Shown here: positions 2,748 through 62,500 of the stretch, piece after piece | Layout: each line of letters opens with the position of its first letter | Numbering within the stretch: the stretch's first letter is position 1 | Source: Nemertoderma westbladi | Lineage: Eukaryota > Animalia > Xenacoelomorpha | Reading direction: 5' to 3' | NCBI GenBank assembly: GCA_032718475.1 | Contig: JAUCBJ010005949.1 | Location: 49,638-113,637 of the forward strand | Length of the DNA stretch: 64,000 bases | Position numbers and translations under genes: made by a program | Notes under the pieces: generated by a model | The model's database searches: none | Told to the model about the DNA's origin: nothing | Seen by the model: the letters and a program-made list of their open reading frames with translations, nothing else

Positions 2748-2758
2748 TTAATAGATTT
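2748..2758 (+). promoter_or_regulatory. Non-tRNA primer-binding site of D (TTAATAGATTT), complementary to LTR 1133-1143
   Basis: Exact 11-nt reverse complement of AAATCTATTAA at 1133-1143; abuts the LTR terminal CA. Confidence 0.8.
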
Positions 2759-9158: not shown

Positions 9159-9169
9159 TTAAAGGATAT
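9159..9169 (+). promoter_or_regulatory. Non-tRNA primer-binding site of A (TTAAAGGATAT), complementary to LTR 8369-8379
   Basis: Exact 11-nt reverse complement of ATATCCTTTAA; no TGG after the LTR. Confidence 0.8.
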
Positions 9170-18591: not shown

Positions 18592-18669
18592 CTGTTTAGA
18601 GTATCTTTATGTTTTAGAAACTGTGATTTTTATATTTTATAGACTGAAAATCCCATTTTCTGGGAGCGG

Positions 18670-33400: not shown

Positions 33401-34700
33401 ATACTTCAGACCTAACAGGTTGACACATTGTTACCGGGGGTGGTGGTATACCCTTTTGTGTATTTACTAATTTATAGCGTTCTAACGCGATACTTTGCTG
33501 CACTTCTTGCAACTCTAACCTACTTTCCCTTACTGTGCCCTTGAATTGCTGAACGGTCTCCTGCATCTGCCCGAGCAGGAGATCCATCCCCCGTCGTCTC
33601 TCATCCACCCACTCGACCGCCGAAGCGGGAGCCGCCAACGTTGTAGCGGGCCGACGAGGGACAACGGGCGACAAATCATTAATATTTTGCTTGGAGTCCA
33701 GGACATGAACATTTTCAAGGGTGGTTCTGTGTGGCACAGATAGCTTAGTGCTGTGCAGAGGGAATTTAGAGGTAGGTTCAGGGAGTACAGGTGTCTCTAC
33801 CACAGAAAGGGTGGCTTCGGGAACAGGCCCAATTATTTCAGGCTCATCTACTATAGTAGGGAGTCTTTCTATTTTAATTATTGGGTCTGTGGGTTCTGTA
33901 CTACCTAAGTTTGTGTTATTTAGTTGCCTTCTAACAGCTGGAGGCAAATCAGGCAATTTCTGACGGTGGGATGTTCTTCTACGTCTGCTTAGACGAGACC
34001 TATTTCCTTTGCCTTCAGTATCGGTGGTATCGCCTTCCTCAGATGATGTATATCCCTGTCTTTTGGGAGTAGATCGATTCATCATCTGCATATTACTAGC
34101 TGTTAACTGTTTATTTATGCAGTCTTGATTCTCCTGAATGTTTTCCAATTCTAATTGGGTGGTTTCTTCAGCCGCTCTCCGTTCTGCTTCTGCCACTGCC
34201 TCTGCCGCTTTTCTTTCCGCTTCTGCCGCCGCCGCCTTTCTTTCCGCCTCGGCCGCTGCCACTTTTCTTTCTGCTTCTGCAGCTTCCACTGCTGCTGCCA
34301 CTGCCGCTGCCTTTCTGTCCTCTATACGTTTTTTCTTTACTTGTTCTTCTTGGACTCTAGCGATGCGGAGTTGTTCATCAAATTTAGCTTGGTTCGCAGC
34401 TCTCATATCCACGTCGATGGCGTCCAACACACGCTGGGTTCCTTCACTATTAGGTCTAAGTCCATCCAGCCTTCTCCTCAACTCTTCATCACCTAAAAAA
34501 CGTTGATAGTCTGACAGATAGATGTCAATGGCATCCCTCTTATGCGGTTTCTCTGCCGTCGCTTCACTTTCCACTTGGGAAAAAGTAGCATCTGTTGATT
34601 CTCCATGGGTTGAGCGCTCCTCCAGCTGAGCTTTCCACTGAGCCATTCCTTGAACCTGGAGACTCACCCGTTGAAACCAAGTCTTTACGGCAACTTGCAA
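27420..34700 (-). CDS. gag-pol: Gag-Pol polyprotein (2426 aa open frame), BEL/Pao type
   Basis: Gag knuckles; PR ALLDSGS; RT DIEGMFLQV and YMDD; RNase H VFGDAS, PRAELKAA, YWTD; integrase H-H-C-C, GVDLFGP, SDKGTNF, WGGSWERLIRSVK. True start uncertain (first ATG at 35477). Confidence 0.95.
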   Translation of the reverse strand: MQVAVKTWFQRVSLQVQGMAQWKAQLEERSTHGESTDATFSQVESEATAEKPHKRDAIDIYLSDYQRFLGDEELRRRLDGLRPNSEGTQRVLDAIDVDMRAANQAKFDEQLRIARVQEEQVKKKRIEDRKAAAVAAAVEAAEAERKVAAAEAERKAAAAEAERKAAEAVAEAERRAAEETTQLELENIQENQDCINKQLTASNMQMMNRSTPKRQGYTSSEEGDTTDTEGKGNRSRLSRRRRTSHRQKLPDLPPAVRRQLNNTNLGSTEPTDPIIKIERLPTIVDEPEIIGPVPEATLSVVETPVLPEPTSKFPLHSTKLSVPHRTTLENVHVLDSKQNINDLSPVVPRRPATTLAAPASAVEWVDERRRGMDLLLGQMQETVQQFKGTVRESRLELQEVQQSIALERYKLVNTQKGIPPPPVTMCQPVRSEVSHAQGVEPTRIYTASEVETPIVNPIKGNYRPVDSDILYRPDHNPRNLYTDNSILNNTMAQESFTRQMARTEARQAVKVGEIVKFNGDEMKWLPFNEYYKDNIQNSVLSNGEKLRFLIECLEGSPKLMALKFIGHPDGLRQVWDTLNIRYGNRNNIAGYLYAKLVAPRKFISSGIIEFSDEIQEICRQLDWLGKSHEYQSAMVIRAVASTLPKGGVGTRWDKKVLYMMEHQQRDPTMADLMSFLDGEVKLQLIKQSREKTPENKVSEKPVSRRKVTPVCYTDDGESQTSQGEVSGKDTERTYYVNKTPKEQVSKFKSRTNDRREQERKTPPTSPKRIQVRKPEERTSVHNVIQNKVSNIKPKCALCDGTHRLNMCDEFLKKSLAERREVMWDKRLCYNCLRQGHQRRTCYSDTRCAKCGAKHHILLHTEFERNSQSQVSDSELHVQFSDVNDTDQSSEMEGFYTDEFSDEGESCYMINTAVYRALTYEKDTDSDLTLTTSDRQPSWKAPPSNVGIREFPVVQVRVHGPKRSYVVNALLDSGSTGTFIDKELAEDIFAGQPKFRTKLNMSGIMQVWKSTVIADYYVGALSTPQDELGEHSIRSVKMVAIKNFATTQVEPYNWDEDDFTQELEIPRFNTDYPGVQILIGQNAHEALKTLEKRPAQPQPLQAYAGRTRVGWYFTGPSRRTLMERLPKDEVCQVREWEVESSELDDPTEGTPYSSDNDDVHQLFDEENAIDLLKENETWQNQVNLCQLLLPSERDDYNDELNDFIERYNAKTRDEHAVRFFTQEAVEPNSYDKALSVEEERAKQIQETTTRFLKDQGRYDIGLPFRKREPKFVNNRPLAEKRIAQLHRRLTANSSAKEMYQTQLKKFISKGYAELVPEETPITERTYYLTHHYVPKPGKPHEVRVVFDGSALYMGQSLNSELLPGPNLLQSLLGILLRLRQYSIAFASDIEGMFLQVKALDRDRDSLRFLWWPEGDLNQKPVEYWMTIQAFGIISSPSNACSVVRTTADDNRDAFSKEVIDNIKRDIYMDDNLKSLPSVEEAIDVAKGTVECLKRGGFRLTKFTSNSREFLESIPVEDRGAKDLDLIKDDLPETKTLSLKWDTERDILFFQLKQRDNPVRTKRICLSILSTYFDPLGFISPVILIARSLVQQMWLENHSWDDPLKGELLKKWMKWEDSLPAIENFIISRSYFGHVLPTYSYQLHVFGDASDMGIGIVAYLRVETPDGIKVALVTSKALINNKLKVPRAELKAALYATAIGRNVTELIDYPLEKTVYWTDALLVLEYITNEVCQFSVFVTNRVAIILSRTTMDQWRHCPGTINPADIASRGATPQELVDTPDWLGGPDFLYKEEEEWPPHLTTTEIRQAKGAEKVKPKTRASKSKLFKPMVDLSVLHTSGDDALDQKPTATNKLVVEIRDKDWKSGIPDVSQGLSPLLQRAIHHYSSWNRLCKAVTYLKRCFHHHYTGMKAKGDTAPITSVQVHVIKDLPKYKIPDRFLKEKISYQEHEETNKQMLRLLQCYEDSDKYFLLLRNPQMRLRDRFSSTMRDGLIRVGGRLTNAPLSFDTKFPILIRNLEIQVKMIVDVHSKLYHAGRERVLSEIRTRYYFYKPRRALNQVLRNCIPCRKAFSRPLTQREAELPRERVSFYEPPFTNTGVDLFGPIEVYRARTIVKRWCVIFVCMTCRAIHLDMVNDLSTNSFLLSLRRQIARFGTSNTMRSDKGTNFIGANNEIKAYVKDWNQRQVDDQLRVTASSWTFNAADAPWWGGSWERLIRSVKTAFHFIVPCRAYLTDELLRTLMEEIAAYLNERPLMPVSSSPDSLEALTPAHFLLKKPVAMLPQSEITDGDEYCRQTWQLMQLLSRRFADHFEKHYLPTLQLRTKWFAQQENVSAGDMVLIVDVDLPRKRWQTGRIIETHISYDGLVRSVELVVMRRNFKKPGIVFETQQPNRPVGHLCLLERDRELSGNYGRQDTLPTTTSLIQQTSRDSPA

Positions 34701-35477
34701 CGACGTGTCTTTCTTCTTTTAGAAGCCTCCTCGATAAGATTAGCCTGATTCGTAGAATTCTTTCTCTAACTTGATAAAGCAGCTGTCCCTGCTCTTGAGG
34801 TCCTTGGGGTTGTTGAAACAGTTGTTCTTTTAATCGCTCCATAGAGCTGAAGAATCTCTGTGCGTATCCGGCTGCGGACCTCTTCCACACAGCTGGATCG
34901 ATGGTTTCTTTGGTTACTCCCATCCTGTGTATATCTTCCCAGGCAGCTTCTGATAAATCAAACGGGAATCCGGGTCCGGGGAAGTTCCATTGCGACTCGA
35001 CAATAGACTTCAGTTCTTCCCTTGTGTATCCCGCATAACTATCTTTAGTCGATCGCTTACTTCTCGCCCAATCGATCTGGTGTTCTTCCACCGCAATCAA
35101 TAACCTAGTGAGTACGGCTGCAGGAAGGATGAGAAGGGGATCCGAATAAACCGCATCCGTCATCTTTGCTCCGCGCTCGGGTGTCAGCTCTACAGTATCC
35201 TCACTACTGGAGCTGTCGGCCGTTGAGAAATAAGTTCTTGGCTCGCGGGTTGTTGTTGTTCCGCTGCTTCTTGGTCCCGCTTGACCTGAGCTCTAGTGCC
35301 TATGATAGACCTACGGTGTTGGACCAGCCTAGGTTCTGATATTACTACTGGGGGAATGATCTTTCTTACAGTAGGAGGTGAGTTGAACTTTGGTTTAACA
35401 CGTTCCACACTCCTGTCTAGGTCACATATGGTTGTATCTAGGAGACTGTCTGACAGATTTTGCTTTGTGTCAGACAT
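34564..35477 (-). CDS. Gag N-terminal region of B split over two short frames (35190..35477 and 34564..35163)
   Basis: Starts MSDTKQNLSDSLLDTT like A and C; about 770 bp of it is absent from C and more from A. Confidence 0.55.
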
Positions 35478-37721: not shown

Positions 37722-37733
37722 TATATCCGTTAT
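37722..37733 (-). promoter_or_regulatory. Non-tRNA primer-binding site of B (ATAACGGATATA), complementary to LTR 38451-38462
   Basis: Exact 12-nt inverted match; abuts the LTR end. Confidence 0.8.
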
Positions 37734-38891
37734 TGTTCGCGCTTTCAGACCTTTAGCAGTTTAACCTGCCAAATTAGGATGTCTTCTAGATAATAGATAG
37801 TCTTTAGCCTACGACAAATATTTGATACATTACATTAGCCGAAACCAGTCTATGCGCGATCATTCACCCGCTGGATATACCCGGGAGACTGGATTCGGAA
37901 GCCTAATCGTATTGCGGGATAGGCCTACTGTATTATTCGACTGATCTTAGTATATATAATCTCTGACAAATATTATTCACTTTCGGGAAATATTAACAGT
38001 TCCTTTAGGACGTGGCGCTCTAAATATATAAACAGAGTTATGACTTAAACTATACACAACGGGATGGCTATAGATTCACGTATATGGCGCATTCTTTAGG
38101 AGATGCTTCGTTATCAATCGCAATCATACACAATACTGCACAATGCTGCACACCAATCTGCCGACCTTTACTAATTTTAGTCACATATAAGGAGAACAAC
38201 AGACAATACGTGTAGGGCCTATAAAATAGCATTAGATTCACTTCAACCCACTCAATGTAAGTCGCAATCGTTATATGTATCCGGTCTCTCTAACCTTTAG
38301 TATATCAAGAAGATTGGGGTGTCTGATTGTTTATCAGTATTCCGAATATAATGTTCCATCAACAAATATAATGAATAACCGACAGCAAAGCAGTAATGTT
38401 AAGGTATGAATGATTATGAGTGACTGAGTGAGATATGATCAGTGAGTAAGATAACGGATATACGTTCTATAATTAAGCCTACTAATGTTGAACTAAAGAC
38501 TGAAACACGGAGGTTCCACGCCGGTGTTGTAGGCTGTGGAAAAATCACATACTGACTCAACTCCAAGAGTTTCTATCTACCATCTAACACAGAGGCAAAA
38601 AACGCTCTGATTGGTCGACCGATCAAAGAGAGAACAAAGAACAAAGAGATGTTCTACGTTGCAATATCAGCTGTTAGCCATCGTCATGGTAGCTACACTG
38701 TTTCAAGAGGATCCGGCTTATTGCGTCATAAAATTGAGGATTATGTCCGCTAAAGTACACATACAGAAGAAATTACTTTTATGTCCTCTAAAACAACAAT
38801 ACAGTAAGGACACGGCCTTTTATGCCTGGTGAACCAACTACAGAGTACTTTACGGGGAAAATAACCGGCTAATTACGCAAAAGCCTTTACA
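37734..38891 (-). repeat. 5' LTR of element B
   Basis: Direct repeat of 20304-21461; TGTAAAGGC...GCGCGAACA on the minus strand. Confidence 0.95.
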
Positions 38892-42904: not shown

Positions 42905-45800
42905 GGTAGCGACAGAACGGGGTCCATGGTTCCGGGGATGGAGGCCATCCATCAGACAGGGCGGGGTGCATGGTTCCGGGGATGGAGGCCATCAGTCAGG
43001 GTGGGGTCCATGGTTCCGGGGATAGAGGCAGTAAGACAGGGCGGGGTCCATGGTTCCGAGGATGGAGGCCATCAGTCAGGGTGGGGTCCATGGTTCCGGG
43101 GATGGAGGCCATCAGTCAGGGCGGGGTCCATGGTTCCGGAGATGGAGGCTGTAAAAGCTTTTGCGGATATAACCAGTCATTTTCTCCGCAATATACTGTG
43201 TGGGTGTTTTAGCGGAAATAACAAGCCATTTTCCGCCGCAATGCGCCTAATACTCTAAAAGTCTGGAACTCAGATGACGAAATCTGTCAGCTGATTTACT
43301 GTAAACGTGGAACACCTCTTTGTTCAGCTCGCTCAGCCAATCAGAGCGATTTTCATTTTATCTTGTACAGAGGCCTACGGAAAACCGCGCAATGCATTAC
43401 GGTTTTTGTTTACCTTTTCTGAGCCTCGGAACATCGGCTTAGCAATTCTTCTGTACTTCTGTAGAAGTTTCAGACTTTGACCTACAGTAAACATCAGAAA
43501 CATCAGATGGCTTTGATTACAAGAACGTAAAACTATTAACGCAATTCAACTACGCAACACACCGCATCACACCGCAAGTCAGCATTGCTGCACATGGAAC
43601 ACTGCATCAGTAACACATACTGACTGTTCACCGCATTATTTTGCTTCTGTTATTAATTGGTGTTATGTTAATGTATATTGCTGATATATTTGGAGAATAC
43701 CGATGAATAATCATAAAACCCCCAATCTTCTTGATTACTGAAGGTTAGAGGAACAGGTTTACCGGTAGCAACTGCGACTTACATTATAGTGGTTTTTGTG
43801 TGAATTAAATGCTATTTCATGATCCCTACATGTGTCAGTTGCGATCCTCTTTATATATGATCAAATTCAGTGACGGTCGGCAGATCAGTGCGCAGTAGTG
43901 TGAAGTAGTGTGAAGTCGTGTGAAGTAGTGTGAAGGTTAATAAAGCATCTCCTAAAGAATGCGCTTTTACGAAACTCAGTAGCCATCCAGTTGTGATTAG
44001 TATAAGTCATAACTCTGTTTATACTTAAAGCGCCACATCCTAAAGGAACTGTTAATATTTCCCGAAAGTAAATATATTGTCAGAGATTATATAGTAACGA
44101 TCAATCGAATAATACAGTAGGTCTACACTGCAATCACTATCAAAGCATCCGAATCCAGTCTCCCTTAACTGTGGGTGAATGGTCGCGCACAGGTTGGCTT
44201 CGGCTGATGTAACTTCAGTACATTAAATAATTGATATACAAAAGACAATTAAAATTGGCAGGTTAAACTGCTAAAGGTCTAAAAGCGCGAACAGAGGCAG
44301 TCAGACAGGGCGGGGTCCATGGTTCCGGGGATGGAGGCCATCAGACAGGGCCGGGTCCATGGTTCTGGGGATGGAGGCCATCAGACAGGGCGGGGTCCAT
44401 GGTTCCGGGGATGGAGGCCATCAGACAGGGCGGGGTCCATGGTTCCGGGGATGGAGGCCATCAGACAGGGCGGGGTACATGGTTCCGGGGATGGAGGCCA
44501 TCAGACAGGGCGGGGTCCATGGTTCCGGGGATGGAGGCAGTAAGAAAGGGCGGGGTACATGGTTCCGGGGATGGAGGCCATCAGACAGGGCGGGGTCCAT
44601 GGTTCCAGGGATGGAGGCAGTAAGACAGGGCGGGGTACATGGTTCCGGGGATGGAGGCCATCAGACAGGGCAGGGTCCATGGTTCCGGGGATGGAGGCCA
44701 TCAGTCATCGCGGGTTACATAGTTCCGGGGATGGAGGCCATCAGACAGGGCGGGGTCCATGGTTCCGAGGATGGAGGCAGTAAGACAGGGCGGGGTCCAT
44801 GGTTCCGGGGATGGAGGCCATCAGACAGGGCAGGGTCCATGGTTCTGGGGATGGAGGCAGTCAGACAGGGCGGGGTCCATGATTCCGGGGATGCAGGCAG
44901 TCAGACAGGGCGGGGTCCATGGTTCTGGGGATGGAGTCAGTGAGACAGGGCGGGGTCCATGGTTCCGGGGATGGAGGCCGTCAGACAGGGCGGTGTCCAT
45001 GGTTCCGGGGATGGAGGCAGTAAGACAGGGCGGGGTCCATGGTTCCAGGGATGGAGGCCATCAGACAGGGCGGGGTCCATGGTTCTGGGGATGGAGGCAG
45101 TCAGACAGGATGGGGTCCATGATTCCGGAGATGCAGGCAGTCAGACAGGGGGGGTCCATGGTTCTGGGGATGGAGGCAGTGAGACAGGTCGGGGTCCATG
45201 GTTCCAGGGATGGAGGCAGTCACAGAACGGGGTCCATGGTTCCGGGGATGGAGGCAGTAATAAAGGACGGGGTCCATGGTTCCGGGGATCGAGGCAGTAA
45301 GAAAGGACGAGGTCCATGGTTCCGAGGATAGAGGCAGCAAGATAGGACGGGGTCCATGGTTCCAGGGATGGAGGCAGTCACAGAACGGGGTCCATGGTTC
45401 CGGGGATCGAGGCAGTAAGAAAGGGTGGGTTCCATGGTTCAGAGGATAGAGGCAGTCAGTCAGGGCGGGGTCCATGGTTCCGGGGATAGAGGCCATCAGA
45501 CAGGGCGCGGGCAGGGTCCATAGTTCCGAGGATAGAGGCAGTCAGACAGGGCGGGGCCCATGGTTCCAGGGTTGGAGGCTGTCAGACAGGGCGGGGTCTA
45601 TGTTTCCGGAGATGGAGGCCGTCAGACAGGGTGGGGTCTATGTTTCCTGGGATGGAAGCTGTCAGACAGGGCGGGGTCTATGTTTCCGGGGATGGAGGCA
45701 GTCAGACAGGGCGGGGTCCATGGTTCCGAGGATAGCGGCAGTCAAACAGGGCGAGCCCATTGTTCCGCGGGCAGAGGCAGTCAGACAGGGTGTGGTCCAT
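42905..45800. repeat. 40-bp G-rich minisatellite, interrupted by a solo LTR
   Basis: Unit GTCCATGGTTCCGGGGATGGAGGCCATCAGACAGGGCGGG, about 6 copies before and over 35 copies after the LTR. Confidence 0.95.
43150..44293 (+). mobile_element. Solo LTR (1144 bp) of a fourth subfamily
   Basis: TGTAAAAGCT...AAAGCGCGAACA, TSD GAGGC on both sides (43145-43149, 44294-44298), no internal sequence. Confidence 0.95.
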
Positions 45801-45825
45801 GCCATCCTGTTACGAACGGTATGAG

Positions 45826-46548: not shown

Positions 46549-47041
46549 TATTAATAAATTATTTTTATCACCACAATACAGTCACAATGTTGTGGTACAG
46601 TAGAATTGATTACAAATTGGAACACTGTATTAATTATTATTGATGTAACTTTTAAAATATTATTTTTGACAGATTTTAGGTTAGGGAATCCTGTATTTAT
46701 AAAGGCGAGATTGGTATTGGGATTCTTTTGGGATTGTTTACCACCCGTATTATTGATATTGAATGGGACTTTACCGTAATGGTGCCTATATGTACTCTTT
46801 GTGTGGGTGGTTAAGATAAGATAAGCTTAGTTAGTTATTTATAGTTCTATTTTTATACATTACCTCAGTACCTGCAATAAACACACTGACGTCCTAATGA
46901 ATTAATAATCTCCCTATTCTTTCCACCATAAACTATAAATGATATTATACTTCACAAAAGCTAAGCCTATATTCTAAAAGAAAATATATGACATTGTAAA
47001 AGCTTTTTCGGACAAAATAAGTCATTTTGCGCAATGCGCTT
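46445..47041. repeat. Segmental duplication copy 2, ending in the first 47 bp of a D-type LTR (46995-47041)
   Basis: Matches 1-847; the D-type LTR is cut off where the element C LTR begins. Confidence 0.9.
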
Positions 47042-48190
47042 TGTAAAGGCTTTTGCGTAATTAGCCGGTTATTTTCCCCGTAAAGTACTCTGTAGTTGGT
47101 TTAACAGGCATAAAAGGCCGTGTCCTTACTGTACTGTTGTTTTAGAGGACATAAAAGCCATTTCTTCTGTATGTGTACTTTAGCGGACATGATTAGCAAT
47201 TTTATGACGCAATGCGCCAAATCCTCTGGAAACAGTGTAGCTACCATGACGACGGCTAACAGCTGATGCTGTATACGTGGAGCTTTTTCTTTGTTCTCTG
47301 TTCCTTCTTTGTTCGGTCGACCAATCAGAGCGGTTTTTTGCCTCTGTGTTGGAGATTGTATATAGAAACTCGTGAAGTTGAGTCAGTATGTGATTTGTCC
47401 ACAGCCTACAACACCGGCTTTGGAACCTCCGTGTTTCAGTCTTTAGCCCAACATTAGTAGGCTTAATTATAGAACGTATATCCGTTATCTAACCAAATCG
47501 ATCATATCAATTTATACCTTAACGTTTTACTGCTTTTACTGTCGGTTATTCATTATATTTGTTGATGGAATATTATATTTGGAATACTGATCAATAATCA
47601 GACACCCCAATCTTCTTGATATACTAAAGGTTAGAGAGACCGGTTACATATAACGATTGCGACTTACATTAAGTGGTTTGAAGTGAATCTAATGCTATTT
47701 TATAGGCCCTACATGTATTGTCTGTTGTTCTCCTTATATGTGACTAAAATTAGTGAAGGTCGGCAGATTAGTGTGCAGCATTGTGCAGTATTGTGTATGA
47801 TCGTGATTGATAACAAAGCATCTCCTAAAGAATGCGCCATATACGCTAATCTATAGCCATCCCGTTGTGTCTAGTTTAAGTCATAACTCTGTTTATATAT
47901 TTAAAGCGCCACGTCCTAAAGGAACTGTTAATATTTCCCGAAAGTGAATAATATTTGTCAGAGATTATATATATTATGATCAGTCGAATAATACAGTAGG
48001 CCTACCCCGCAATACGGTTAGGCTTCCGAATCCAGTCTCCCGGGTATATCCAGCGGGTGAATGATCGCGCATAGACTGGCTTCGGCTAATGTAGTGTATC
48101 AAATACTTGTCATAGGCTAAAGACGATCTATTATCTAGAAGACATCCCAATTTGGCAGGTTAAACTGCTAAAGGTTTGAAAGCGCGAACA
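47042..48190 (+). repeat. 5' LTR of element C (1149 bp)
   Basis: TGTAAAGGC...GCGCGAACA; highly similar to the B LTRs. Confidence 0.92.
47321..47387 (+). promoter_or_regulatory. Putative LTR Pol II core promoter (CCAAT, TATA, TCAGT initiator)
   Basis: CCAATCAGAGCG at 47321 is conserved in all four LTR types (971, 8215, 43337); TATATAGAAA at 47359; TCAGT at 47383. Confidence 0.55.
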
Positions 48191-48202
48191 ATAACGGATA
48201 TA
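48191..48202 (+). promoter_or_regulatory. Non-tRNA primer-binding site of C (ATAACGGATATA), complementary to LTR 47477-47488
   Basis: Exact 12-nt reverse complement of TATATCCGTTAT. Confidence 0.8.
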
Positions 48203-50491
48203 GCTTCTGTATTGCAGTAGGCAATAAAGCTGAAGTACTGGTTAACCGGTACCTAGTAGGCCTGACTACCTAACCACCCGGACCGGTACCTACAGCAGTA
48301 CAGGTACAGCAGTATTATTCGATTGTGAAATTGTATACCGGTAGGCTGTTTAAGAGATTAGGGACTGTACACCCCTTGTTTCTTTTGGAGCTTACTTATT
48401 TCTGTCAGTTTTATTTATTTGTAGGCCAGTATTGAGCAGAAGGCGTGTAAGCCTGCTCAGATTGTACAGACAATTTGTAGGCTGGACTGTTGTCTGACTG
48501 TTGTTAAGTCTGAAGAGACTGTAGTGTGTGTAGAGCATATGTCCGAAAAAGTACTAGTTAGGAAAGTAGGGGCTGCCAGTGCTGTGAGGTGAACCCCCTC
48601 GAAAGAATAAGTCGTACTACTCGGTTAGAACGCATACTAACTAACCATTTCGGAGTCTGCATATACTGTAGTGTATTTAGGCTTGATAGTAGTCTGCCAG
48701 CGTTTGGTCTGTACTTTGTTTGTGTAGTTTGTACGGGTAGCGTAATATTTCTTACTTAGATAATTTGTAGGCTGGATTTTGTCTGGCTGTTGTTAGGTCT
48801 TGAGAGATTTCGGTGTGTGTAGAGTGTATGTCCGATAAAGTGCCAGTTGGGAACGTAGGGGCTTCCAGAGCTGTGAGGTAAACCCCCTCGAAAGAATAAG
48901 TCGTACTACTGGGTTAGAACGCATACTAACTAACCATTTCGGAGTCTGCATATACCGTAGTTTGTTTGGGCTTGATAGTAGTCTGTCAGTATTTGGTCTG
49001 CATTTTGTTTGAGTAGTCTACGCGTAGCGTAATATTTATTATTCAGAGTTTATGCGATTATTCGCAACATTCATTCCCCAAGTTTATTCCTACAGTAATT
49101 GTGCTTGTTATATATACCGTTATAGTTAAACTAACCCCGGTACTACATCAGGGCTGCTTGGCATAGGTAAAGACTGGTGATTTTGTGCCCCGGTCACTCC
49201 AGCAGATACCGTGGTTCTTTTAGCTGTTCAAGTATTTTTAACTACTGATTATTTGTTGTATAAGTACTCGTACCTAATTTAGGGTTTAGTGTACAGTGCT
49301 TTCCGAAGGTGATTAGTGTGTAGGCAGTATATTTGTGTTGTAAAGTGGTTAATAGGCACGTTGGTTCTGGTAGACCGCGGTAATTAACTTCTAGGTAGGA
49401 ACACTCCGTGATACATAACGTAGTACTTATAGCGCCACGGCTATAAGTCGTCAGACGGTGGTATTTTTCTATCTGGACAATGCAGTATATTTACTACTAC
49501 TTATTATTTTCAAATACCGTAGTAACCTGTCCGTTGTAATAACCAGATATTCTAACCCTTTGTTAGGCTGGTTAGTAGACTTCTTGTAAAATTACCCTAA
49601 AAATTCGTACTTGTAAATTTTTGTGTTTATTTAGAGATTGTAATCTCAACCCGAATTGTACGTAATTTGTAGTATTAAGTAACTTAGGTAAATTAGAATT
49701 ATTTGTTCTAGTGTCCAACAAGTAGCACTCCACTGAGAGCGCACAGCTTCTGTGTAGTGACTCCCCCCAGAAATAATAACATTTATTTCAAATATTGAAA
49801 AAACCCACTTTAACGGGTATATATATTATAAATCAACTCAAACGATTTATAAATAGTAGGCCTGCCATACATCAATTAGGTCAAAATATCAGTTGGACTA
49901 CTGCTTAAATAACGGTAATAAAGTAAGTAAAGTAACCAAGTAACCCCTAAAAAATTCAGAAATTCAATTATTTAAAATAATTGACATACCGGTATTTACC
50001 ATAGGTTTATTATATTTATTTCTATAAACTTTAGGCTGAAATTATACCGGTATTCTGTAATTAATTCTAGTCTGTAATTATACTTATATATATACATTAT
50101 AAGTGTAAGCTGTATACCGGTATTCATGATAGGCCTATTATATATTTAAAAATTTAGGCTGAAATTATACCGGTATTCTGTAATTAATTCTAGTTAATAA
50201 TTATACTTATATATACTATAGGTATAAGCTGCATACCGGTATTCACGATAGGCCTATTATATATTTATATATTTGTGCTGGAATTATATACCGGTATTCT
50301 GTGACAAACCTAGTCTGTAATAATACTTATATATATACTATAAGCATACCGGTATTCTAATATATTATATATATATCACGCTACACTGAGTAGCAGTATC
50401 GGTAATTAATTACTAGGCTAACAGTGATACTGAATTACTAGACTTGCTTAAACTGTAATATAGCAGTAGGCATTCAACTGTACAAACCAAC

Positions 50492-53400
50492 ATGTCTGAC
50501 ACAAAGCAAAACCTGTCAGACAGTCTCCTAGATACTCCAGGTGAGTCTCCAGGTGCAAGGAACGGCTCAGTGGAAAGCCCAGCTGGATCAGCGCTCAACC
50601 CATGGAGAATCAACAGATGCTACTTTTTCCCAAGTGGAAAGTGAAGTGACGGCAGAGAAACCGCATAAGAGGGATGCCATTGACATCTATCTGTCAGACT
50701 ATCAACGTTTTTTAGGTGATGAAGAGTTGAGGAGAAGGCTAGATGGACTTAGCCCTAATAGTGAAGGAACCCAGCATGTGTTGGACGCCATCGATGTGGA
50801 TATGAGAGCTGCGAACCAAGCTAGATTTGATGAACGCCTCCGCATCACTAGAGTCCAAGAAGAACAAGTGAAGAAAAAACGTATAGAAGACAGAAAGACA
50901 GCGGCAGTGGCAGCGGCAGAAGCACAAAGAAAAGCGGCAGTGGCAGCGGCAGAGGCAGAGGCAGAAGCGGAAAGAAAAGCGGCAGAGGCAGAGGCAGAAG
51001 CCGAAAGAAAAGTGGCAGCGGCAGCGGCCGAAGCGGAAAGAAAGGCGGCTGTGACAGCGGCAGAGGCAGTAGCAGAAGCAGAACGGAGAGCTTCCGAAGA
51101 AACCACCCAATTAGAATTGGAAAACATTCAGGAGAATCAAGACTGCATAAATAAACAGTTAACAGCTAGTAATATGCAGATGATGAGTCGATCTACTCCC
51201 AAAAGACAGGGATATACATCATCTGAGGAAGGCGATACCACCGATACTGAAGGCGGAGGAAATAGATCTCGTCTAAGCAGACGTAGAAGAACATCCCACC
51301 GTCAGAAATTGCCTGATTTGCCCCCAGCTGTTAGAAGGCAACTAAATAACACAAACTTAGGTAGTACAGAACCCACAGACCAAATAATTAAAATAGAAAG
51401 ACTCCCTACTATAATAGATGAGCCTGAAATAATTAGGCCTGTTCCCAAAGCCACCCTTTCGGTGATAGAGACACCTGTACTCCCTGAACCTACCTCTAAA
51501 TTCCCTCTGCACAGCACTAAGCTATCTGTGCCCCACAGAACCACCCTTGAAAATATTCATGTCCTGGACTCAGAGCGAAATATTCATGATTTGTCGCCCG
51601 TTGTCCCTCGTCCGCCCGCTACAACGTTGGCGCCTCCCGCTTCGGCGGTCGAGTGGGTAGATGAGGGACGACGGGAGATGGGTCTCCTGCTCGGACAGCT
51701 GAGGGAACAACATTCTCGCTCCTCTCAGCAGGCCCAGGAGATGGAGGGATCTGTGCAGCAGTTAAAGGGAACGATTAGAGAGAGTAGGTTAGAGTTGCAA
51801 GAAGTGCAGCAAAGTATCGCGTTAGAACGCGATAAATTAGTAAATACACAAAAGGGTATACCACCAACCCCGGTAACAATGTGTCAACCTGTTAGGTCTG
51901 AAGTATTTCATGCGCAAGGTGTGGAGCCTACACGCATATATACTGCTAGCAAAGTAGAAACTCCTATAGTGAACCCTATTAAGGGTAATTATAGACCTGT
52001 TGATAGTGATATTCCCTATAGACCTGATCATAATCCGAGAAATTTATATACCGATAACTCGATATTAAATAACACGATGGCCCAAGAAAGTTTTACGCGT
52101 CAAATGGCTAGAACCGAAGCCCGTCAAGCGGTAAAGGTGGGAGAGATAGTCAAGTTCAATGGAGATGAGATGAAATGGTTACCTTTTAATGAATATTATA
52201 AAGATAACATACAGAACTCTGTACTATCTAATGGGGAGAAACTTAGATTCCTCATCGAGTGCTTGGAAGGATCTCCCAAGTTAATGGCATTAAAGTTTAT
52301 TGGACATCCAGACGGATTAAGACAAGTTTGGGATACACTAAACATCAGGTATGGTAATAGGAATAACATAGCTAAATATTTGTATGCAAAATTAGTAGCG
52401 CCCCGAAAGTTCATTAGCAGCGGGATAATAGAGTTTTCCGATGAGATTCAAGAGATCTGTAGACAATTAGATTGGTTAGGTAAGTCTCATGAATATCAGA
52501 GTTCTATGGTTATTGGAGCCGTGGCTTCTACTTTACCGAAGGGTGGAGTAGGTACACGCTGGGATAAGAAAGTGTTATATATGATGGAACAACAACGACG
52601 AGACCCTACCATGGCTGATCTCATGTCATTCTTAGATGGAGAAGTGAAATTACAGCTCCTAAAACAGTCCAGAGAGAAGACACCGGAAAACAAGGTAAGT
52701 GAGAAACCCGTTTCTAGGAGAAAGGTAACACCTGTGTGTTATACAGACGACGGCGAAAGCCAGACTTCTCAAGGCGAGGATAGCGGGAAAGACACTGAAA
52801 GATCTTATTATGTCAATAAAATGCCTAAAGAACAGGTAAGTAAATTCAAGTCTCGAAACAATGACAGGAGAGAACAGGTAAGAAAAACTCCTCCTACGTC
52901 TCCTAAGAGAATTCAGGTGAGAAAGCCCGAAGAAAGAACGAATGTGCACAATGTTATTCAAAATAAGGTAAGTAACATCAAACCGAAATGTGCGCTATGT
53001 GACGGGACCCACCGTTTGAATATGTGTGATGAATTCCTGAAGAAATCATTAACGGAGAGACGGGAAGTCATGTGGGATAAGCGGTTGTGTTATAATTGCC
53101 TCAGACAAGGACACCAACGGCGAACCTGTTACTCCGACACAAGGTGTGCAAAGTGCGGTGCGAAACATCATATCTTGTTGCACACTGAATTTGAGCGAAA
53201 CAGCCAGAGTCAGGTAAGTGATTCCGAACTACATGTCCAATTCAGTGATGTGAACGACACTGACCAAAGTTCTGAGATGGAAGGATTCTATACAGATGAA
53301 TTCTCCGACGAAGGTGAATCCTGTTACATGATAAATACCGCAGTGTATCGAGCACTTACGTATGAAAAGGACACAGACAGCGACCTCACCCTAACTACTT

Positions 53401-56400
53401 CTGATCGACAACCATCTTGGAAAGCGCCACCTTCCAATGTAGGAATCCGAGAATTTCCTGTAGTACAGGTAAGGGTCCACGGACCTAAAAGGAGTTATGT
53501 AGTGAACGCCCTCCTTGACTCCGGTAGTACAGGAACATTCATCGACAAAGAACTAGCCGAAGACATCTTTGCTGGACAACCCAAGTTCCGAACTAAGCTA
53601 AACATGTCAGGAATTATGCAGGTTTGGAAATCTACAGTAATCGCGGATTATTATGTAGGTGCGTTGTCCACCCCCCAGGATGAACTAGGAGAACATAGTA
53701 TAAGGTCAGTAAAAATGGTGGCGATAAAGAACTTCGCTACCACCCAAGTGGAACCTTATAACTGGGATGAGGACGATTTCAGCCAGCAGCTGGAAATACC
53801 TAGATTCAACACCGATTACCCTGGAGTGCAAATACTCATCGGTCAAAACGCGCATGAAGCGCTCGAGACATTGGAGAAACGGCCTGCTCAACCGCAACCA
53901 CTACAAGCTTATGCGGGAAGAACTAGAGTGGGTTGGTACTTTACGGGCCCTTCCCATAGAACTCTCCTGGAAAGATTACCGAAAGACCAGGTATGTCAAG
54001 TGAGAGAATGGGAAGTCGAGGGCAGTGAGTTAGATGATCTAACTGAGGGAACACCATACTCCTCAGATAATGACGATGTCCACCAACTTTTCGATGAGGA
54101 GAATACCATCGATCTCCTTAAGGAAAACGAGACTTGGCAAAACCAAGTGAACTTATGTCAGCTCCTTCTTCCATCAGAACGAGACGGCTATAACGACGAA
54201 CTTAATGACGTCATTGAACGTTATAATGCCAAGACTCGGGATGAACACGCCGTACGATTCTTTACTCAAGAGGCTGTAGAGCCCAATTCCTACGATAAGG
54301 CCCTATCGGAAGAGGAAGAAAGAGCCAAGCAGATCCAGGAGACAACTACACGTTTTCTTAAAGATCAAGGTAGATATGAGATCGGTCTACCTTTCCGAAA
54401 GCGAGAACCAAAGTTCATAAACAACAGACCCTTGGCGGAGAAAAGAATTGCTCAACTACATCGACGCCTTACGGCAAATTCTTCAGCTAAAGAAATGTAT
54501 CAAACGCAGTTGGAGAAATTTATTAGCAAGGGATATGCGGAGCTAGTACCGGAAGAAACACCTATAACTGAGAGAACGTATTATTTAACTCACCATTACG
54601 TTCCCAAACCCGGTAAACCCCATGAGGTACGAGTGGTGTTTGACGGCTCCGCCCTCTATATGGGCCAATCCCTTAATTCTGAATTGTTACCCGGACCCAA
54701 CTTACTCCAATCCTTGTTGGGAATACTCTTAAGATTAAGACAATATTCAATTGCTTTCGCCTCAGATATAGAAGGCATGTTCTTACAAGTCAAGGCGCTG
54801 GATAGGGATCGAGACAGCCTACGATTTCTGTGGTGGCCTGAAGGAGACCTCAACCAGAAACCAGTGGAGTACTGGATGACCATCCAGGCTTTTGGGATAA
54901 TCTCAAGCCCTTCAAACGCCTGTTCCGTGGTGCGCACCACTGCGGATGACAACCGAGACGCCTTCTCTAAAGAGGTGATTGACAACATCAAGCGGGATAT
55001 ATACATGGACGACAATCTAAAGTCCCTTCCATCAGTCGAAGAAGCCATCGATGTCGCTAAAGGAATGGTGGAGTGCTTAAAAAGAGGTGGATTTCGATTA
55101 ACTAAATTCACCAGCAACTCCCGTGAGTTTCTGGAGTCGATCCCGGTAGAAGATCGAGGAGCAAAAGACCTGGATCTAATAAAAGATGATCTCCCAGAAA
55201 CTGAGACCCTTGGTTTGAAATGGGACACCGAAAGAGATATCCTGTTTTTCCAACTAAAACAGCGAGATAATCCAGTTCGGACTAAACGGATTTGTTTAAG
55301 TATCCTGAGCACTTATTTCGATCCATTGGGATTTATTAGCCCAGTTATATTGATTGCTCGGAGTTTAGTACAACAAATGTGGCTTGAAAACCACTCATGG
55401 GACGATCCACTTAAGGGAGAATTATTAAAGAAGTGGATGAAATGGGAAGATTCTCTACCAGCCATCGAGAACTTTATAATTTCCCGTTCATATTTTGGTC
55501 ATGTTCTCCCTACGTATTCCTATCAACTCCATGTGTTTGGAGACGCCAGCGATATGGGAATAGGTATAGTAGCCTACCTAAGGGTGGAAACTCCGGACGG
55601 AATCAAAGTCGCCTTGGTTACCTCTAAGGCATTGATAAACAACAAGTTGAAAGTTCCTCGAGCGGAGTTAAAGGCGGCTCTATACGCTACAGCCATCGGT
55701 CGGAATGTAACAGAACAGATCGACTATCCACTGGAGAAAACTGTCTATTGGACCGACGCTTTACTCGTGTTGGAGTATATAACCAATGAAGTCTGTCAGT
55801 TCAGCGTCTTCGTTACCAACAGAGTAGCCATTATACTCAGTCGCACAACGATGGATCAATGGAGACATTGCCCCGGAACGATTAACCCAGCAGACATTGC
55901 TTCCAGAGGAGCAACTCCACAAGAACTGGTAGATACTCCAGACTGGTTAGGTGGACCCGACTTCCTCAACAAAGAAGAAGAAGAATGGCCTCCTCATCTT
56001 ACTACCACAGAGATTAGACAAGCCAAGGGAGCGGAGAAAGTCAAACCTAAAACTAAAAGCGAGTAAATCAAAGTTATTCAAACCTATGGTAGATCTGTCT
56101 GTACTACATACTTCCAGAGACGACGCTTTGGATCAGAAACCCACAGCCACAAATAAACTTGTTGTGGAAATCCGTGAGAAGGATTGGAAATCTGGAATAC
56201 CAGACGTCTCGCAAGGACTCTCACCTCTTCTGCAAAGAGCGATACATCACTACAGTTCCTGGAATCGGCTCTGTAAGGCCGTTACATATTTAAAGATATG
56301 TTTTCACCATCACTACTCCGGGATGAAGGCCAAAGGTGATACCGCTCCAATAACATCAGTGCAGGTCCATGTTATTAAAGATCTTCCCAAATATAAGATA

Positions 56401-57888
56401 TCCGACAGGTTTCTGAAGGAGAAGATCAGTTATCAGGAGCATGAAGAAACCAACAAGCAGATGCTGAGACTCCTGCAATGCTATGAGGATTCCGATAAGT
56501 ATTTCCTGTTGTTGAGAAATCCACAGATGCGCTTAAGGGATTGTTTCTCTAGCACAATGATAGATGGGTTGATACGTGTTGGAGGAAGATTAACGAATGC
56601 TCCATTATCCTTTGACACTAAGTTTCCCATACTCATTAGAAATCTTGAAATACAAGTCAAGATGATTGTAGACGTTCACAGCAAACTTTATCATGCTGGT
56701 AGGGAACGAGTTCTCAGCGAAATTCGAACTCGCTATTATTTTTATAAACCCCATAGAGCTCTGAACCAAGTTCTTAGGAACTGCATACCCTGTAAGAAAG
56801 CATTCAGTAGGCCTTTAACACAGCGAGAGGCAGAATTACCTAGGGAACGAGTAAGCTTCTATGAACCACCCTTTACTAATACCGGTGTGGATTTATTTGG
56901 CCCTATTGAAGTATATCGTGCTAGGACTATAGTCAAGATATGGTGTGTCATCTTTGTTTGTATGACTTGTAGAGCTATCCATCTCGACATGGTGAACGAT
57001 TTATCTACCAACAGCTTTCTATTAAGCTTACGACGACAGATCGCTCGCTTTGGCACTAGTAACACGATGAGATCTGATAAGGGAACAAACTTCATTGGTG
57101 CCAACAATGAAATCAAAGCTTATGTCAAAGATTGGAACCAAAGACAGGTGGACGATCAGCTACGAGTAACAGCGTCTAGCTGGACCTTCAACGCCGCCGA
57201 CGCCCCTTGGTGGGGAGGAAGTTGGGAGAGATTAATAAGAAGTGTGAAAACCGCATTTCACTTTATAGTGCCATGCCGCGCGTATCTCACCGACGAACTT
57301 TTGCGGACGTTAATGGAGGAAATCGCCGCCTATCTCAATGAGAGACCGCTTATGCCAGTCTCATCGAGTCCCGATTCCCTGGAAGCGCTAACACCCGCGC
57401 ATTTCCTACTGAAGAAACCTGTAGCCATGCTCCCACAATCGGAAATCACAGACGGAGACGAATACTGCCGGCAAACTTGGCAACTCATGCAGTTGTTATC
57501 CCGTCGTTTCGCTGACCATTTCGAAAAACATTATCTGCCCACGCTACAACTTCAAACTAAGTGGTTTGCGCAGCAAGAAAACGTCAGCGCTGGAGACATG
57601 GTTCTTATTGTGGATGTAGATCTTCCACGTAAGCGGTGGCAGACAGGTCGTATCATCGAGACTCACATCTCGGATGATGGTTTGGTGCGATCGGTAGAAC
57701 TCGTCGTCATGCGACGTAACTTCAAGAAACCGGGAATTGTCTTCGAGACACAGCAGCTCAATCGCCCAGTTGGTCGCTTATGTTTACTGGAAAGAGACAG
57801 AGAACTCTCCGGAAACTATGGGAGGCAAGATACTCTTCCCATGACCACCTCCCTAATCCAACAAACATCTAGGGACTCCCCAACTTAA
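50492..57888 (+). pseudogene. gag-pol: gag-pol of element C, with one frameshift near 56055 and a first ATG (50492) out of frame with the long ORF
   Basis: ORFs 50541..56066 and 55951..57888 together match the B polyprotein; one extra base in AAACTAAAAGCGAG relative to B. Confidence 0.9.
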
Positions 57889-59517
57889 CAACGGCTGGAG
57901 TGGGTGTATGACTAGATTTTATATTTGTTTTATTCTTTTATATTTATGTATATATTATTATGTAATTTTATTATAATCGTTTTCTTTAATTTTACTTAGT
58001 AGAACGTTATTTTAGCGATTATTTAGTAGATTAGTGCAATATATATTCGCGTTTATTACTTAATTACTTATACATTATATATTTAGTGCGACGGCGAGAA
58101 ATAATTCTTTTTCTCCTTCCTTACTGTCCGTATTACATTACAAATACGTAACTACAGTAAGATGAAATGTCCGTACTTATTAAAGTACAATAAAGCTCCT
58201 ACTATATTTAAGTATTATTGGTAGGCAGAGTATTAGGAATGCAAAATTCAGATCCTCGTGTCTCGGCTAAACCAAGCTCTGGGTAGACCTTGGAAACGAC
58301 TTGCCTCTTCTCACTGACATTGCTTCGTGCGATATTGCTCTCATACCGTATATTAAATAATACATATAGTAGCGTGATGTCCTTTTAACAGTAGCGTATA
58401 ACGCAAAATAAATCTGTTAAACCCTTTGACCATCTGTAATTCTAGTCGATTAAGATATCACGGCACCCACCGATATACTTGAAAGACAAATTCTAGAATC
58501 AGTGGTTAACGTCACCAGACAAGTTCTGGAATAAACTGGTGCCCATCCTAAATATTAATTATTAATATTTACAAAATCTGTCAAATTTTAGATCCTTTAA
58601 AATTCTAGTCGATTAAGATATCGTAGCACTTACCGATACTCTTAAAAAGACAAAATTCCTAGAATCAAGGATCCCAGTCCCCAGACACGTTCTGGAATAA
58701 AATTGTGTCTATTTAACATTAAGTAATAAAATTTACGGGAATAAATTTAAATTCATATATTTTAATGAATTTAATAAATTGTTATTTTTATACAATTTAT
58801 AACATTCCCAAAATTCCTTTAATTAATAGATCATGGGAGCGGAGATTCACTCTATTAAGTGTATTTGTGTGCGAGAATCTCCAATATATAGTCAATAGCC
58901 GATAAAATTCATAAAATCATATATAGAGAGGATATTGACAATTAAAGAATTACTATTAAATAGCAGATCTGTATGCATGAGAATTACCCTAATTCTACCG
59001 CTAGCTTTCCATAATGTCACCATGGCAACAACCACGCTAGAATTAGAAGTGAGTTAAAAGAACAATAGAAGGCTTGCCCCATTGAATAGCATAGGGAATA
59101 AATAGCGCACTGCTAGTATCCAAGGATACATAATAAATAAAGTGACATTCTGGAAGGTACTGACTAACGGACAAATGGCCCGAATGTGTACAGTTTATGG
59201 CAGTTGTGTTGAATTTGTGCGTTCATAGGTGGATGTTACTGCTAAAGTGTGTTTACAGTAGCTAGTCGCAATTGTGAAAGTAGCCCTAACTCTCCAGAAA
59301 GAACCTGAAGTTCATCTAAGCCTTTGGGACGGACAGTGGAGTGACTTGTGCCGGTTATCGTTGTCGTTGTGTAGCTACATCGTTGGCGAAAGCACAGCGA
59401 CGACAGTACATCGGCGCTGAGGATCTTGCACTGTCCGGGGGCAAAAGAGGGGTAGGCAGCGACGCCCGCTAGCCTAATATATAAACTCATTGTAATATTG
59501 ATAAACTCATAGCAGAT

Positions 59518-62500
59518 ATGACTGAGTTGATAGAAGATGATCTTAGTATCAGGGAGCGATATACTCTACCTTTACAAGCGTTTGTCGATAGCTTGATACG
59601 CGGCGACGCTGGTCCAACTACTACGGAGGATGATGGTCGTTATATCGAACCGCCAATGTCCCCGGAGCAACTTACGCGTGAATTGGATTATAGAAAGTTC
59701 ACCGCTCGCTATACGCATCGTAATGGTACGTATATGGACTTCTTAACTACCGGCCATCCTATCGATTTATACGATACGGACGATGTAGATACCAAAAGGG
59801 AAATGGTTTTATTTAAATATCATACCCAGCGGAGTTGGAACGATAAACCGAGAATAGAACACGAGAACTCTATTCGAAACAGACTCGAAAGGGAAGACGT
59901 TGAAGAGCCAGATAAACGTAGTGACTTCAACGATTATCTGGAATTCCTGAGAGAGACATATCTCAATATTGCCAGCCAACAAAATCTCGAAACTAGATAT
60001 CCTCAAGGTATACATCATGATCCTATGATAGAACTCAAACGACTCTATTTCACTATGATGTATCTTACCGCCGATCGACCGCTACCTGTCGTCCCAGATA
60101 GCTTCAAACAGATGGAGGAATATTGTAAAACTGGAGAACGATCACCCGTGTTTCCCCTGCAGGATGTGCGTCTTTGGTATTACTGCGATGAATGCCCTAG
60201 ACCCAATCAGCAAACGGAAAGACATAAACATCCGCGGAGACGTTGCGCTAAACAGAGTTTTACACGATATACTTATGGGAGTTTCGAGCGAAACCTATTC
60301 GACGTATCACCTATGGTCGCTCGGCTCAAACGATCCTTGAATAAACCAATGATCAGAGTTCCGGAATACTCGGTCAGACCTCCTCATTCCTCAGTTAGAC
60401 CTCAGACTCTTGATCCTAATAGTATCACGGATCCTCCCGAACTGTACTCACTGTTCAAAGATCTAGTGTTACCCGAACAGTTGATCGGTGGCACTCCGGT
60501 AGTAGGCTCACTAGATATTCGCCAACCCTACCTAGCTGGATTGGGACGCGGTCATCTAATATCGCCGTTTAACCCATACAACCGTCCCGGCTTCACCTCC
60601 ATCCAACCCGTTACGGAAGTCGAAGAGAGCGTCGTACGAAACACGTTAGACGCTATTCGGCAGAAAATCGGAAAAGGAACTTACGATTGTTTGGAGAAAC
60701 GTAAATTGCAACAACAAGTCCAAGCGGTGAAGGAATTAGCTTTACCCCAGTTGAATAGAGAAATACAAAATCTCGAGGAGGACATCGAACGTGGACGAAC
60801 CTACTCTTTACAAGAGTTCCTAGATGAGCGTCTACAACAACAAGCGGAGGAAAATCAGCTCGAGGAGAGACATATAGAACTAGATGAGAGAGAAGAAGCA
60901 GCTTTAGCTCAACACGAAGCTCAAATCCTTATGACGGATCTCTACTCTAAAACCATCCTTCATCCCTCGATGGTTCCCCATTTCGGAGACAAACTCTTTG
61001 CGACGGTACAACCCCAACCGGTTGATATTAACCTAAGATCTCGAGATCTTATCGCTGACGCTCCCATGTTGCAACGTCCGCCCATCCAAGCCGCTCGTGT
61101 CGATGGTATACTCGTTGAACCTCCGGACAATAGAGCGGATCTTGTCCGTCGCATGGTACACGATGTAAACATACGCGCTAGACCTTTACCGGACTCGTTT
61201 TATGGGATCAAAGATCACCCTTATTACGTCAATCTAACACAATATTACATGGTAAAACCGGAAGATCCTATACATAGTCTGAGGTTTCTACCACTCATAA
61301 ATCCTCTCGATCTTGTCGAACTCGAACAACTGCAGAAACATCTGGATCAGTTAGTTAAAATAAACTCATTTCGAAAACCATATAATGTTTCCAGAATAGA
61401 GAAAGAAACAATACCTCCGTATAATCTTGATGGATTCATCAAAACTCGATTAGTACACTGGAATCTTGACGTGTTATTCGAGGAGGAAAGAATACAACGA
61501 TATGGAGATGTGGAAACATATACCACACAATATTTAAAGTATAGAGACCTACCTAATGCTAGCGAATGCGCTACCTTGTCGCATCCTGTGGGAATGACCC
61601 TCGAAAACGCCACTAAAGAGTGGAACGAAACTCTTAACATTATCGAGATGTATGGAGTTGTCACTTACGACAACGAAGGTAGCGTTCCGGTTGGAGAACT
61701 GGGAACTATGCGGATGATACACATACGAGGACTCGCTGGTTCTACCCACGTATTTACTCGAGCGTGTTCCGATGTGATTGATTATTCTTTTGAGACTCTT
61801 ACTGAGACACAAAAGAAACTCCGACATGGACAATTCGAACTCGCGCAGCGTTATGTCGCCGACACCGAGCGCAAACCGGCCATGGGTATCGATGGATCGA
61901 TGTTACCCCAGCCCGTGCTCGAGATGTTGTTTAACGAAAGAATCCTTAAAATCGGCTCAGCTGTTTATGGAGACCTACAAAACGACTTTCGGAATATGGA
62001 GAACATTCCATACCCCTTCGTTGATACTCAGCTGATTGCTCCCTGGGCAGAAGGCCGAGGTTTCTTCCGCACTATGTATGCAAATACACCCAGCGGCATT
62101 ACTAAAGTACAACGAACCTCCATCGGACATCTTGCCTTTCAAGAATACGGATGGAATTTCAAGGTTGGAAATCCTATAAATTACCAACAAGTATATGGAG
62201 ATCATTATTCTCGTTTATACTTTGATGGACCATTGACCGCACCTGGCGCCGTGTATAGCTTTATGAGTGTTCCACTTCGTCCCTCCTTAGCTATCGATCT
62301 TTGAAAACGCAGCACTTGCCGGTTGGCTCGCCGATGTGTGCAGTCGTACCATACGCGCCCATCCCTTAATACTTGGAACCAAACTCGCCAAGTTAGATGA
62401 ACACAATAAATTCATCCGCTTCGAATGTTTCAGGCGCTTTCTGACTCCGTTCCGTAACGTTGATAGTCAGTTCAAGGACCGCGCTCTGACCAAACTCAGC

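Follow-up and report, generated by a model that had tools for sequence, protein, structure and literature searches.

The end of U5 is defined by the 3′ end of the primer, and the primer of Tf1 is reportedly released by RNase H-dependent cleavage. Self-priming is known or predicted for the Tf1/sushi, Tcn1 and TAR groups (PMC6317226, in excerpt), and in Tf1 the primer serves as template for the primer-binding site (PBS) at the cDNA end (PMC11042837, in excerpt). Of the main LTR superfamilies, BEL/Pao has received the least study. The initial annotation of the locus considered here took these elements to be described as tRNA-primed, and the ICTV taxonomy profile does state tRNA priming, with an 18-nt PBS for host tRNA-Arg or tRNA-Gly (PMC8742986). 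The terms primer, PBS and tRNA are absent from PMC3118150 and PMC6238403, as are PBS and tRNA from PMC554778. Neither self-priming nor a splice-built primer was found for BEL/Pao in the literature searched (outside which lie subscription papers, GyDB, Repbase and Dfam entries, and supplements), in keeping with the earlier statement that no such description was known.

Four BEL/Pao elements in a 64,000-nucleotide stretch of Nemertoderma westbladi DNA (the window) depart from this picture. Each has, directly behind its 5′ LTR, a short segment complementary to its own LTR, a sequence signature of tRNA-independent priming in BEL/Pao that is real and strong.

A nested cluster of BEL/Pao elements

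A cluster of nested LTR retrotransposons fills much of the window, and four of them (A, B, C and D) have an internal region. Two kinds of evidence set the LTR ends: sequence differences between the 5′ and 3′ copies, and target duplications of 5 bp (A, B and the solo LTR E). The elements, their putative PBSs and the complementary LTR sites are as follows.

801..2747, plus strand: 5′ LTR of D, rearranged, with an insertion and a short duplication inside
1133..1143, plus strand: LTR site of D
2748..2758, plus strand: PBS of D
7926-19902, plus strand: element A, about 12 kb, target duplication GTAGT, LTRs 99.8% identical
7926..9158, plus strand: 5′ LTR of A
8369..8379, plus strand: LTR site of A
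9159..9169, plus strand: PBS of A
18670..19902, plus strand: 3′ LTR of A
38891 to 20304, minus strand: element B, about 18.6 kb, target duplication AGAGG, LTRs 99.3% identical
37734..38891, minus strand: 5′ LTR of B
38451..38462, minus strand: LTR site of B
37722..37733, minus strand: PBS of B
20304..21461, minus strand: 3′ LTR of B, with a purine tract just before it
43150..44293, plus strand: solo LTR E, in a 40-nt satellite, target duplication GAGGC
43529..43539, plus strand: LTR site of E, a fourth variant, one base off that of D
47042..48190, plus strand: 5′ LTR of C, 1149 bp, TG...CA; insertion point 47 nt into the beginning of a D-type LTR
47477..47488, plus strand: LTR site of C, the candidate self-primer end, exact reverse complement of the C PBS
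48191..48202, plus strand: PBS of C, at offset 0 from CA, with no TGG

Both A and B sit within the pol region of D, which begins at 801 and whose 3′ LTR is absent from the window; C begins at 47042 and extends past the window end. The satellite array broken by solo LTR E spans 42918-45801. A host segment (1-483 plus about 735-846) is duplicated at 46445-47041 and carries the start of a D-type LTR, so the D insertion is older than this segmental duplication. An element of about 600 bp at 42013-42612, with 56-bp terminal inverted repeats, is likely a non-autonomous DNA transposon. The leaders exceed 2 kb and contain tandem 288-290-bp and 119-bp repeats (48468-49041, 49985-50348, 9443-10002 and 36802-37385). 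Within the LTRs, 44032-44072 and its homologues form the most conserved and most deeply covered block of the family; the copy in C has no Rfam match.

Assignment to BEL/Pao, as first proposed, is borne out by Pfam matches above cut-offs to DUF1759, Peptidase_A17, Integrase_H2C2 and DUF5641. Domain and motif order is Gag-PR-RT-RNase H-IN with Pao-type domains, and TG...CA LTRs, a target duplication and a purine tract are also present. In B, the gag-pol ORF contains intact YMDD and the four acidic RNase H motifs. There are 484 protein homologues, with PF05380 in all 120 among the matches listed, and identity to the best protein relatives does not exceed 44%. The named homologues come from corals, urchins, mussels and a fish; Sinbad/Sailor elements are reported from such hosts (PMC6238403 and PMC8220671, in excerpt), a likeness that is no more than a lead on the clade. 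The 18-nt PBS for a tRNA 3′ end that characterizes BEL/Pao is absent, and no TGG lies within 48 nt past any 5′ LTR end. Membership in BEL/Pao follows from Pol, the PBS being the anomaly. Nor do the elements belong with Tf1/sushi, because their Pol is that of BEL/Pao and Pfam gives no chromodomain match. The coding regions are:

27420..34718, minus strand: gag-pol ORF of B, 2432 aa, with YMDD, RNase H D-E-D-D and integrase motifs
50532..57888, plus strand: gag-pol of C in two frames, with DUF1759, Peptidase_A17, Integrase_H2C2 and DUF5641
59485..63661, plus strand: extra ORF of C in two frames, likely a DEDD-type 3′-5′ exonuclease with zinc knuckles
25821-21540, minus strand, and pieces at 17251-18373: extra ORF in the other copies

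The extra ORF occupies about 1400 codons past pol in A, B and C and is interrupted at different places. It has no hydrophobic segment and is therefore not an envelope gene. Searches of its pieces against Pfam and PDB, and a word-based homologue search, gave nothing but a weak zinc knuckle. Atlas favoured a DNA_pol_A_exo1-type 3′-5′ exonuclease, scoring 0.83 over the whole piece and 0.91 over residues 700-939, where 24 of 30 matches have PF01612. One distant homologue, P0126 (E 1.9e-4), has an exonuclease-like part and zinc knuckles in the same order, with PF01612 sub-threshold at E 0.2. From these resemblances, the ORF likely encodes a DEDD-type 3′-5′ exonuclease.

Primer-binding sites that follow the LTR

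The positions first given for all eight motifs (four PBSs and four LTR sites, with B on the minus strand) are correct, and in all four elements the 11-12 bases past the terminal CA match exactly the reverse complement of one LTR site. Every PBS begins at offset 0 behind ...GCGCGAACA. By alignment, the LTR sites are homologous across elements, as had been claimed, and the base after the site is C in A, B, C and D and also in E. The invariant pairing core is 11 nt, with a 12th pair in B and C only. In shuffled LTRs (100 per element), the anchored Watson-Crick run averages 5.4-5.7 nt and the observed length is reached once in 400. Across the window, an exact 11-mer complement lies within 1200 nt upstream at 12 of 3229 CA positions, the true sites counted in. 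Chance or an assembly artefact might be suspected where words are short and AT-rich and the D LTR is rearranged, yet its probability is close to nil given the shuffles, the homologous position with compensated changes, the presence of the stretch in contigs of independent studies and the recurrence of the signature in many unrelated records.

The reported absence of a tRNA-type TGG is also upheld: the first TGG stands at +49 in C and +59 in B, and none occurs within the first 140 nt of A and D. A tRNA encoded by the window itself is excluded as primer, as the window holds no tRNA genes. Rfam gave two chance-level matches and no ribozyme over the C LTR and leader. In the window elements, the element's own RNA is the only complement found to begin where U5 ends. 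The PBSs of B and C (48191-48195 in C) and of Tf1 (PMC11042837, in excerpt) open with the same five bases, probably by coincidence.

Covariation ties each PBS to its LTR. Columns 1, 5, 6 and 10 vary, and each change is matched in the LTR site, so that the earlier claim of full compensation holds; it holds for three independent PBS variants rather than four, B and C having one in common. LTR identity between subfamilies is 71-85%, and 94% between B and C. One PBS column is T, A or C, which means that no single unmodified host RNA matches all variants. Tracking ends at 11-12 nt: the A LTR differs just upstream of the site, and the A leader is not changed to match. If the primer is copied into the PBS in each cycle, covariation is expected, and it would therefore indicate templating rather than selection for a helix.

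The LTR site of solo LTR E led to a prediction, recorded beforehand, of A>T at 2755 in a D-type PBS. Among five listed differences in contigs this is the commonest (13 contigs of X1 and 5 of X3, from two studies), in contigs not tied to an E-type LTR. Three further PBS changes listed there, 2748 T>G, 2754 G>T and 2757 T>C, may or may not be compensated. The stretch itself occurs in contigs from independent studies. In a few X1 contigs the LTR end and PBS are duplicated and accompanied by a short insert, which may be a mark left by strand transfer or aberrant priming.

Relatives were drawn from a profile search as the best 80 of 524 metagenome loci plus 20 genome-contig loci (L001-L100). The latter, L081-L100, are BEL/Pao elements in 20 contigs of bacterial genome records and are most likely leftover animal host DNA. 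The LTR-end pattern had 0 matches in metagenome contigs, and the viral contigs searched held no relative. In 19 of the 100 loci a repeat pair fixes the 5′ LTR end at CA or TA, the other 81 being without two LTR copies or a clear end. One LTR end (L057) was borrowed from the sister locus L059, and L010 was dropped as its LTR start was not found, leaving 18 loci with an RT-RNase H identity of 28-45%.

Unspliced and at offset 0, all 18 relatives have at most 6 pairs. When offsets are allowed, many show 6-8 pairs directly behind a pyrimidine tract and AG, and in 13 loci (L001, L008, L017, L026, L041, L046, L052, L057, L059, L063, L082, L084 and L090, including two sister pairs and the trio L008/L017/L063) an upstream GT is preceded by bases that extend the pairing to 10-15 pairs. 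The best donor is GTAAG in 11 of these 13 and a tie including GTGAG in the other two, when only GT was demanded; GTRAG makes up 39 of 879 GT sites in the LTRs of those relatives. The predicted GTRAG..AG introns measure 67-451 nt and lie inside the LTRs. Their predicted exon junction is the PBS complement, and in all 13 loci the match is present only across the intron. The predicted junction of L082 and that of L084 are set apart by a matched change. A strict re-test, with a donor rule fixed after the first splice test, gave at least 10 pairs to the own LTR in 15 of 18 loci, 13 spliced and 2 contiguous (L019 and L083). Cross-pairs of a PBS with the LTRs of other families were positive in 7 of 458 cases, of which 6 fall within the trio L008/L017/L063 (RT identity up to 77%). 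The remaining loci are L081, with 8 pairs only, and L079 and L096, with TGG-type sites. A scan of loci without defined LTR ends, uncounted owing to its noisy null, gave apparently clean spliced matches in L002, L023, L024, L033, L042, L043, L055, L061 and L089 and contiguous candidates in L011, L047 and L080. By these sequence matches, a self-complementary PBS is common to a wide group of marine-type BEL/Pao relatives, mostly by way of a predicted splice junction.

For the window's own elements, a splice-built primer was rejected: spliced totals do not exceed those of shuffles, and there is no strict match. A donor-like site, AAG/GT(A/T)AG, is kept at about 590-670 of the LTR in A, B, C and E, between the primer site and the LTR end. 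No conserved strong acceptor for it was found; an intron there would shorten the 700-nt loop.

In a quick IQ-TREE tree of 96 RT-RNase H segments, from which 6 short loci were left out, a long branch sets L096 and L098 apart from the remaining 94 rows. The spliced type is interspersed with the contiguous type, which takes 4 changes. This fits repeated intron loss, the tree itself giving no direction; intron loss would follow if a spliced 3′ LTR were copied. The window family forms a long branch with poorly resolved neighbours. The TGG-type element L079 is nested among self-complementary ones and may represent a return to tRNA priming.

L079:406-430: TGG-type PBS, which resembles the complement of initiator Met tRNA

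Proposed routes to a probable element-derived primer

Self-priming is supported as the most economical reading of a self-complementary PBS without a tRNA site. The primer very likely derives from the element itself, all such readings taken together, and priming in cis with an RNase H nick is the probable form. By this model, the element RNA would double back on itself and bring the LTR site into pairing with the PBS. By analogy with Tf1, the RNase H of RT would then nick the RNA directly after the site, before the unpaired C, and the new RNA 3′ end would prime minus-strand DNA at CA. During plus-strand synthesis, about 11 nt of primer sequence would be copied back to form the PBS. With the PBS templated by the primer as in Tf1, a self-primer would hold the PBS matched to the LTR, and this copy-back would explain both the exact tracking over 11-12 nt and the loose pairing beyond. 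One point goes against the cis model, in that it gives no reason why plus-strand copying ends 11 nt into a 100-nt primer. In most relatives, the same primer end would be assembled by splicing of a short LTR intron, the window family being the intronless form.

The predicted promoter of C and the helices around its LTR site and PBS are as follows.

47321..47387, plus strand: predicted promoter, with CCAAT at 47321, a TATA-like box at 47359 and an initiator-like TCAGT at 47383; the start site is predicted
47471..47476, plus strand: arm, on the LTR side, of a second helix that is short and imperfect, paired with 48203-48208, weak alone (p 0.15)
48151..48172, plus strand: hairpin immediately ahead of the LTR end, its loop GTTAAA; in A, B, C and D it is preserved by one-sided changes only
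48210..48228, plus strand: conserved leader hairpin overlapping AATAAA, just past the PBS, with homologues in A, B and D

Across the family, the LTR site is preceded by CCAAT at a distance of 152-162 nt and by a TATA-like box at 118-123 nt (B has no TATA), with none near -30. These motifs place the predicted start about 90 nt upstream of the site and give a primer of about 100 nt, its end predicted about 90-110 nt after the start. Of 11 spliced relatives examined, 5 likewise have a TATA-like box, 110-142 nt ahead of the donor. The predicted 100-nt primer has no common fold (z -1.0 to -1.8). Two local hairpins flank the PBS, which is unpaired in the local consensus fold. The second helix beyond the core reaches a combined p of 3e-4 over 19 non-independent rows and p 0.07-0.45 in single window elements. 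The LTRs of B and C have no AATAAA.

The loop between site and PBS measures 702-779 nt in the window elements, compared with 44-251 nt in relatives. In ViennaRNA folds of the full 870-nt leader with a start about 95 nt upstream, duplex probability is 0.15 in C, 0.06 in B, 0.00 in A and 0.39 in D; such long-range predictions are unreliable, yet they lend the model no support. A primer acting in trans, the chief alternative, would dispense with this loop of 700-780 nt that folding backs so poorly. A short LTR transcript, from a solo LTR or ended early, would pair with the genomic PBS, and its tail would be cut or trimmed to the duplex edge, possibly by the element's exonuclease. LTR ends lie far deeper in contigs than the leader, which fits many solo LTRs, and the conserved AATAAA just past the PBS and the likely DEDD exonuclease ORF downstream of pol also suit such a route. 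It is nonetheless unlikely. The strict match to the own LTR suits cis priming better where subfamilies co-occur in one genome, and the exonuclease ORF has no match in L001-L100, although those relatives show the same signature. The ORF is thus not required for the signature that they share.

In a fully Tf1-like arrangement, transcription would really begin at the LTR site or immediately ahead of it, and the RNA would use its first 11-20 nt as primer. The invariant core of 11 nt agrees with it, as do initiator-like TCAGT motifs about 40 nt upstream of the site. With an RNA that begins close to the site, folds of C (0.83-1.0) and A (0.53-1.0) favour the duplex; B stays at or below 0.06 at all four starts. 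The positions of CCAAT and the TATA-like box speak against a start there, and in spliced relatives the first exon must extend upstream of its 3-9 paired bases, where the second helix also lies. Such an arrangement is considered quite improbable.

Similarly doubtful is a duplex with a structural or regulatory role (packaging, translation or a switch that masks the PBS), combined with priming by a host tRNA fragment or another host RNA. Osser, Bryco and Bianca are described as primed by half-tRNAs (PMC6317226, in excerpt), so host fragments of this kind have a precedent. However, each subfamily would need a different host RNA plus an exact LTR match, and pairing starts exactly where the primer must end. 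Moreover, the PBSs of relatives differ widely, yet they follow the own LTR or splice junction.

The cis model can be extended, tentatively and with less than even confidence, to a wider scenario. A large animal branch of BEL/Pao may have dropped tRNA priming for a tRNA-sized capped primer made from its own 5′ RNA, mostly via LTR-intron splicing, such that host splicing would gate reverse transcription. The window family would be an intronless form with a 3′-5′ exonuclease able to finish the primer end.

Comparison with known systems

A self-made primer across a wide animal branch would make BEL/Pao the third superfamily with self-priming. Such a primer could explain why these elements were missed by PBS-dependent annotation, and it would presumably place them beyond the reach of tRNA-fragment control. 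In the spliced relatives, reverse transcription would be tied to host splicing.

In their Pol and LTRs, the elements resemble the Belpaoviridae of the ICTV profile, with the same domain set and order, TG...CA LTRs of up to 1.2 kb, 5-bp target duplications and a purine tract (PMC8742986). Achilles, another BEL/Pao element, has a tRNA-Tyr site (PMC4580426, in excerpt), whereas the window elements have no tRNA-type site. An extra ORF past pol resembling a 3′-5′ exonuclease also occurs as the DEDDy ORF3 of the bdelloid Juno and Vesta (PMC5408684, in excerpt). These belong to other lineages, and the excerpted text describes no link of ORF3 to priming. In size, the two kinds of ORF are far apart, the ORF3 of Juno and Vesta being much smaller.

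Among self-primed elements, Tf1 and Tf2 of S. pombe, Tj1, Tosmo and the Tf1/sushi and Tcn1 chromoviruses likewise have a PBS that adjoins the LTR CA and complements the LTR, with extra helices beside it (PMC4600332 and bioRxiv 10.1101/2022.12.06.519325, in excerpt). Those elements are Ty3/gypsy, whereas the window elements belong to another superfamily, BEL/Pao. The Tf1 self-primer is the very 5′ end of the RNA; in the window elements, the site is predicted about 90 nt inside and a 700-nt loop separates it from the PBS. Compared with the three-duplex 'pretzel' of Tf1, there is one imperfect second helix and two local hairpins, and full-length folding is weak. The excerpts of the literature on Tf1/sushi-type elements that were examined do not describe an intron-built primer. 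For the TAR clade (Houba, Osr-1), self-priming was recognized by a complement of at least 10 bp lying 0-5 bp past the LTR, which is found here as well (PMC6317226, in excerpt); that clade differs in being plant Ty1/copia, and its self-priming is, in the same excerpt, predicted only. Set beside these systems, self-priming in BEL/Pao would be a variation on a known mechanism, new for the superfamily as far as the literature was searched.
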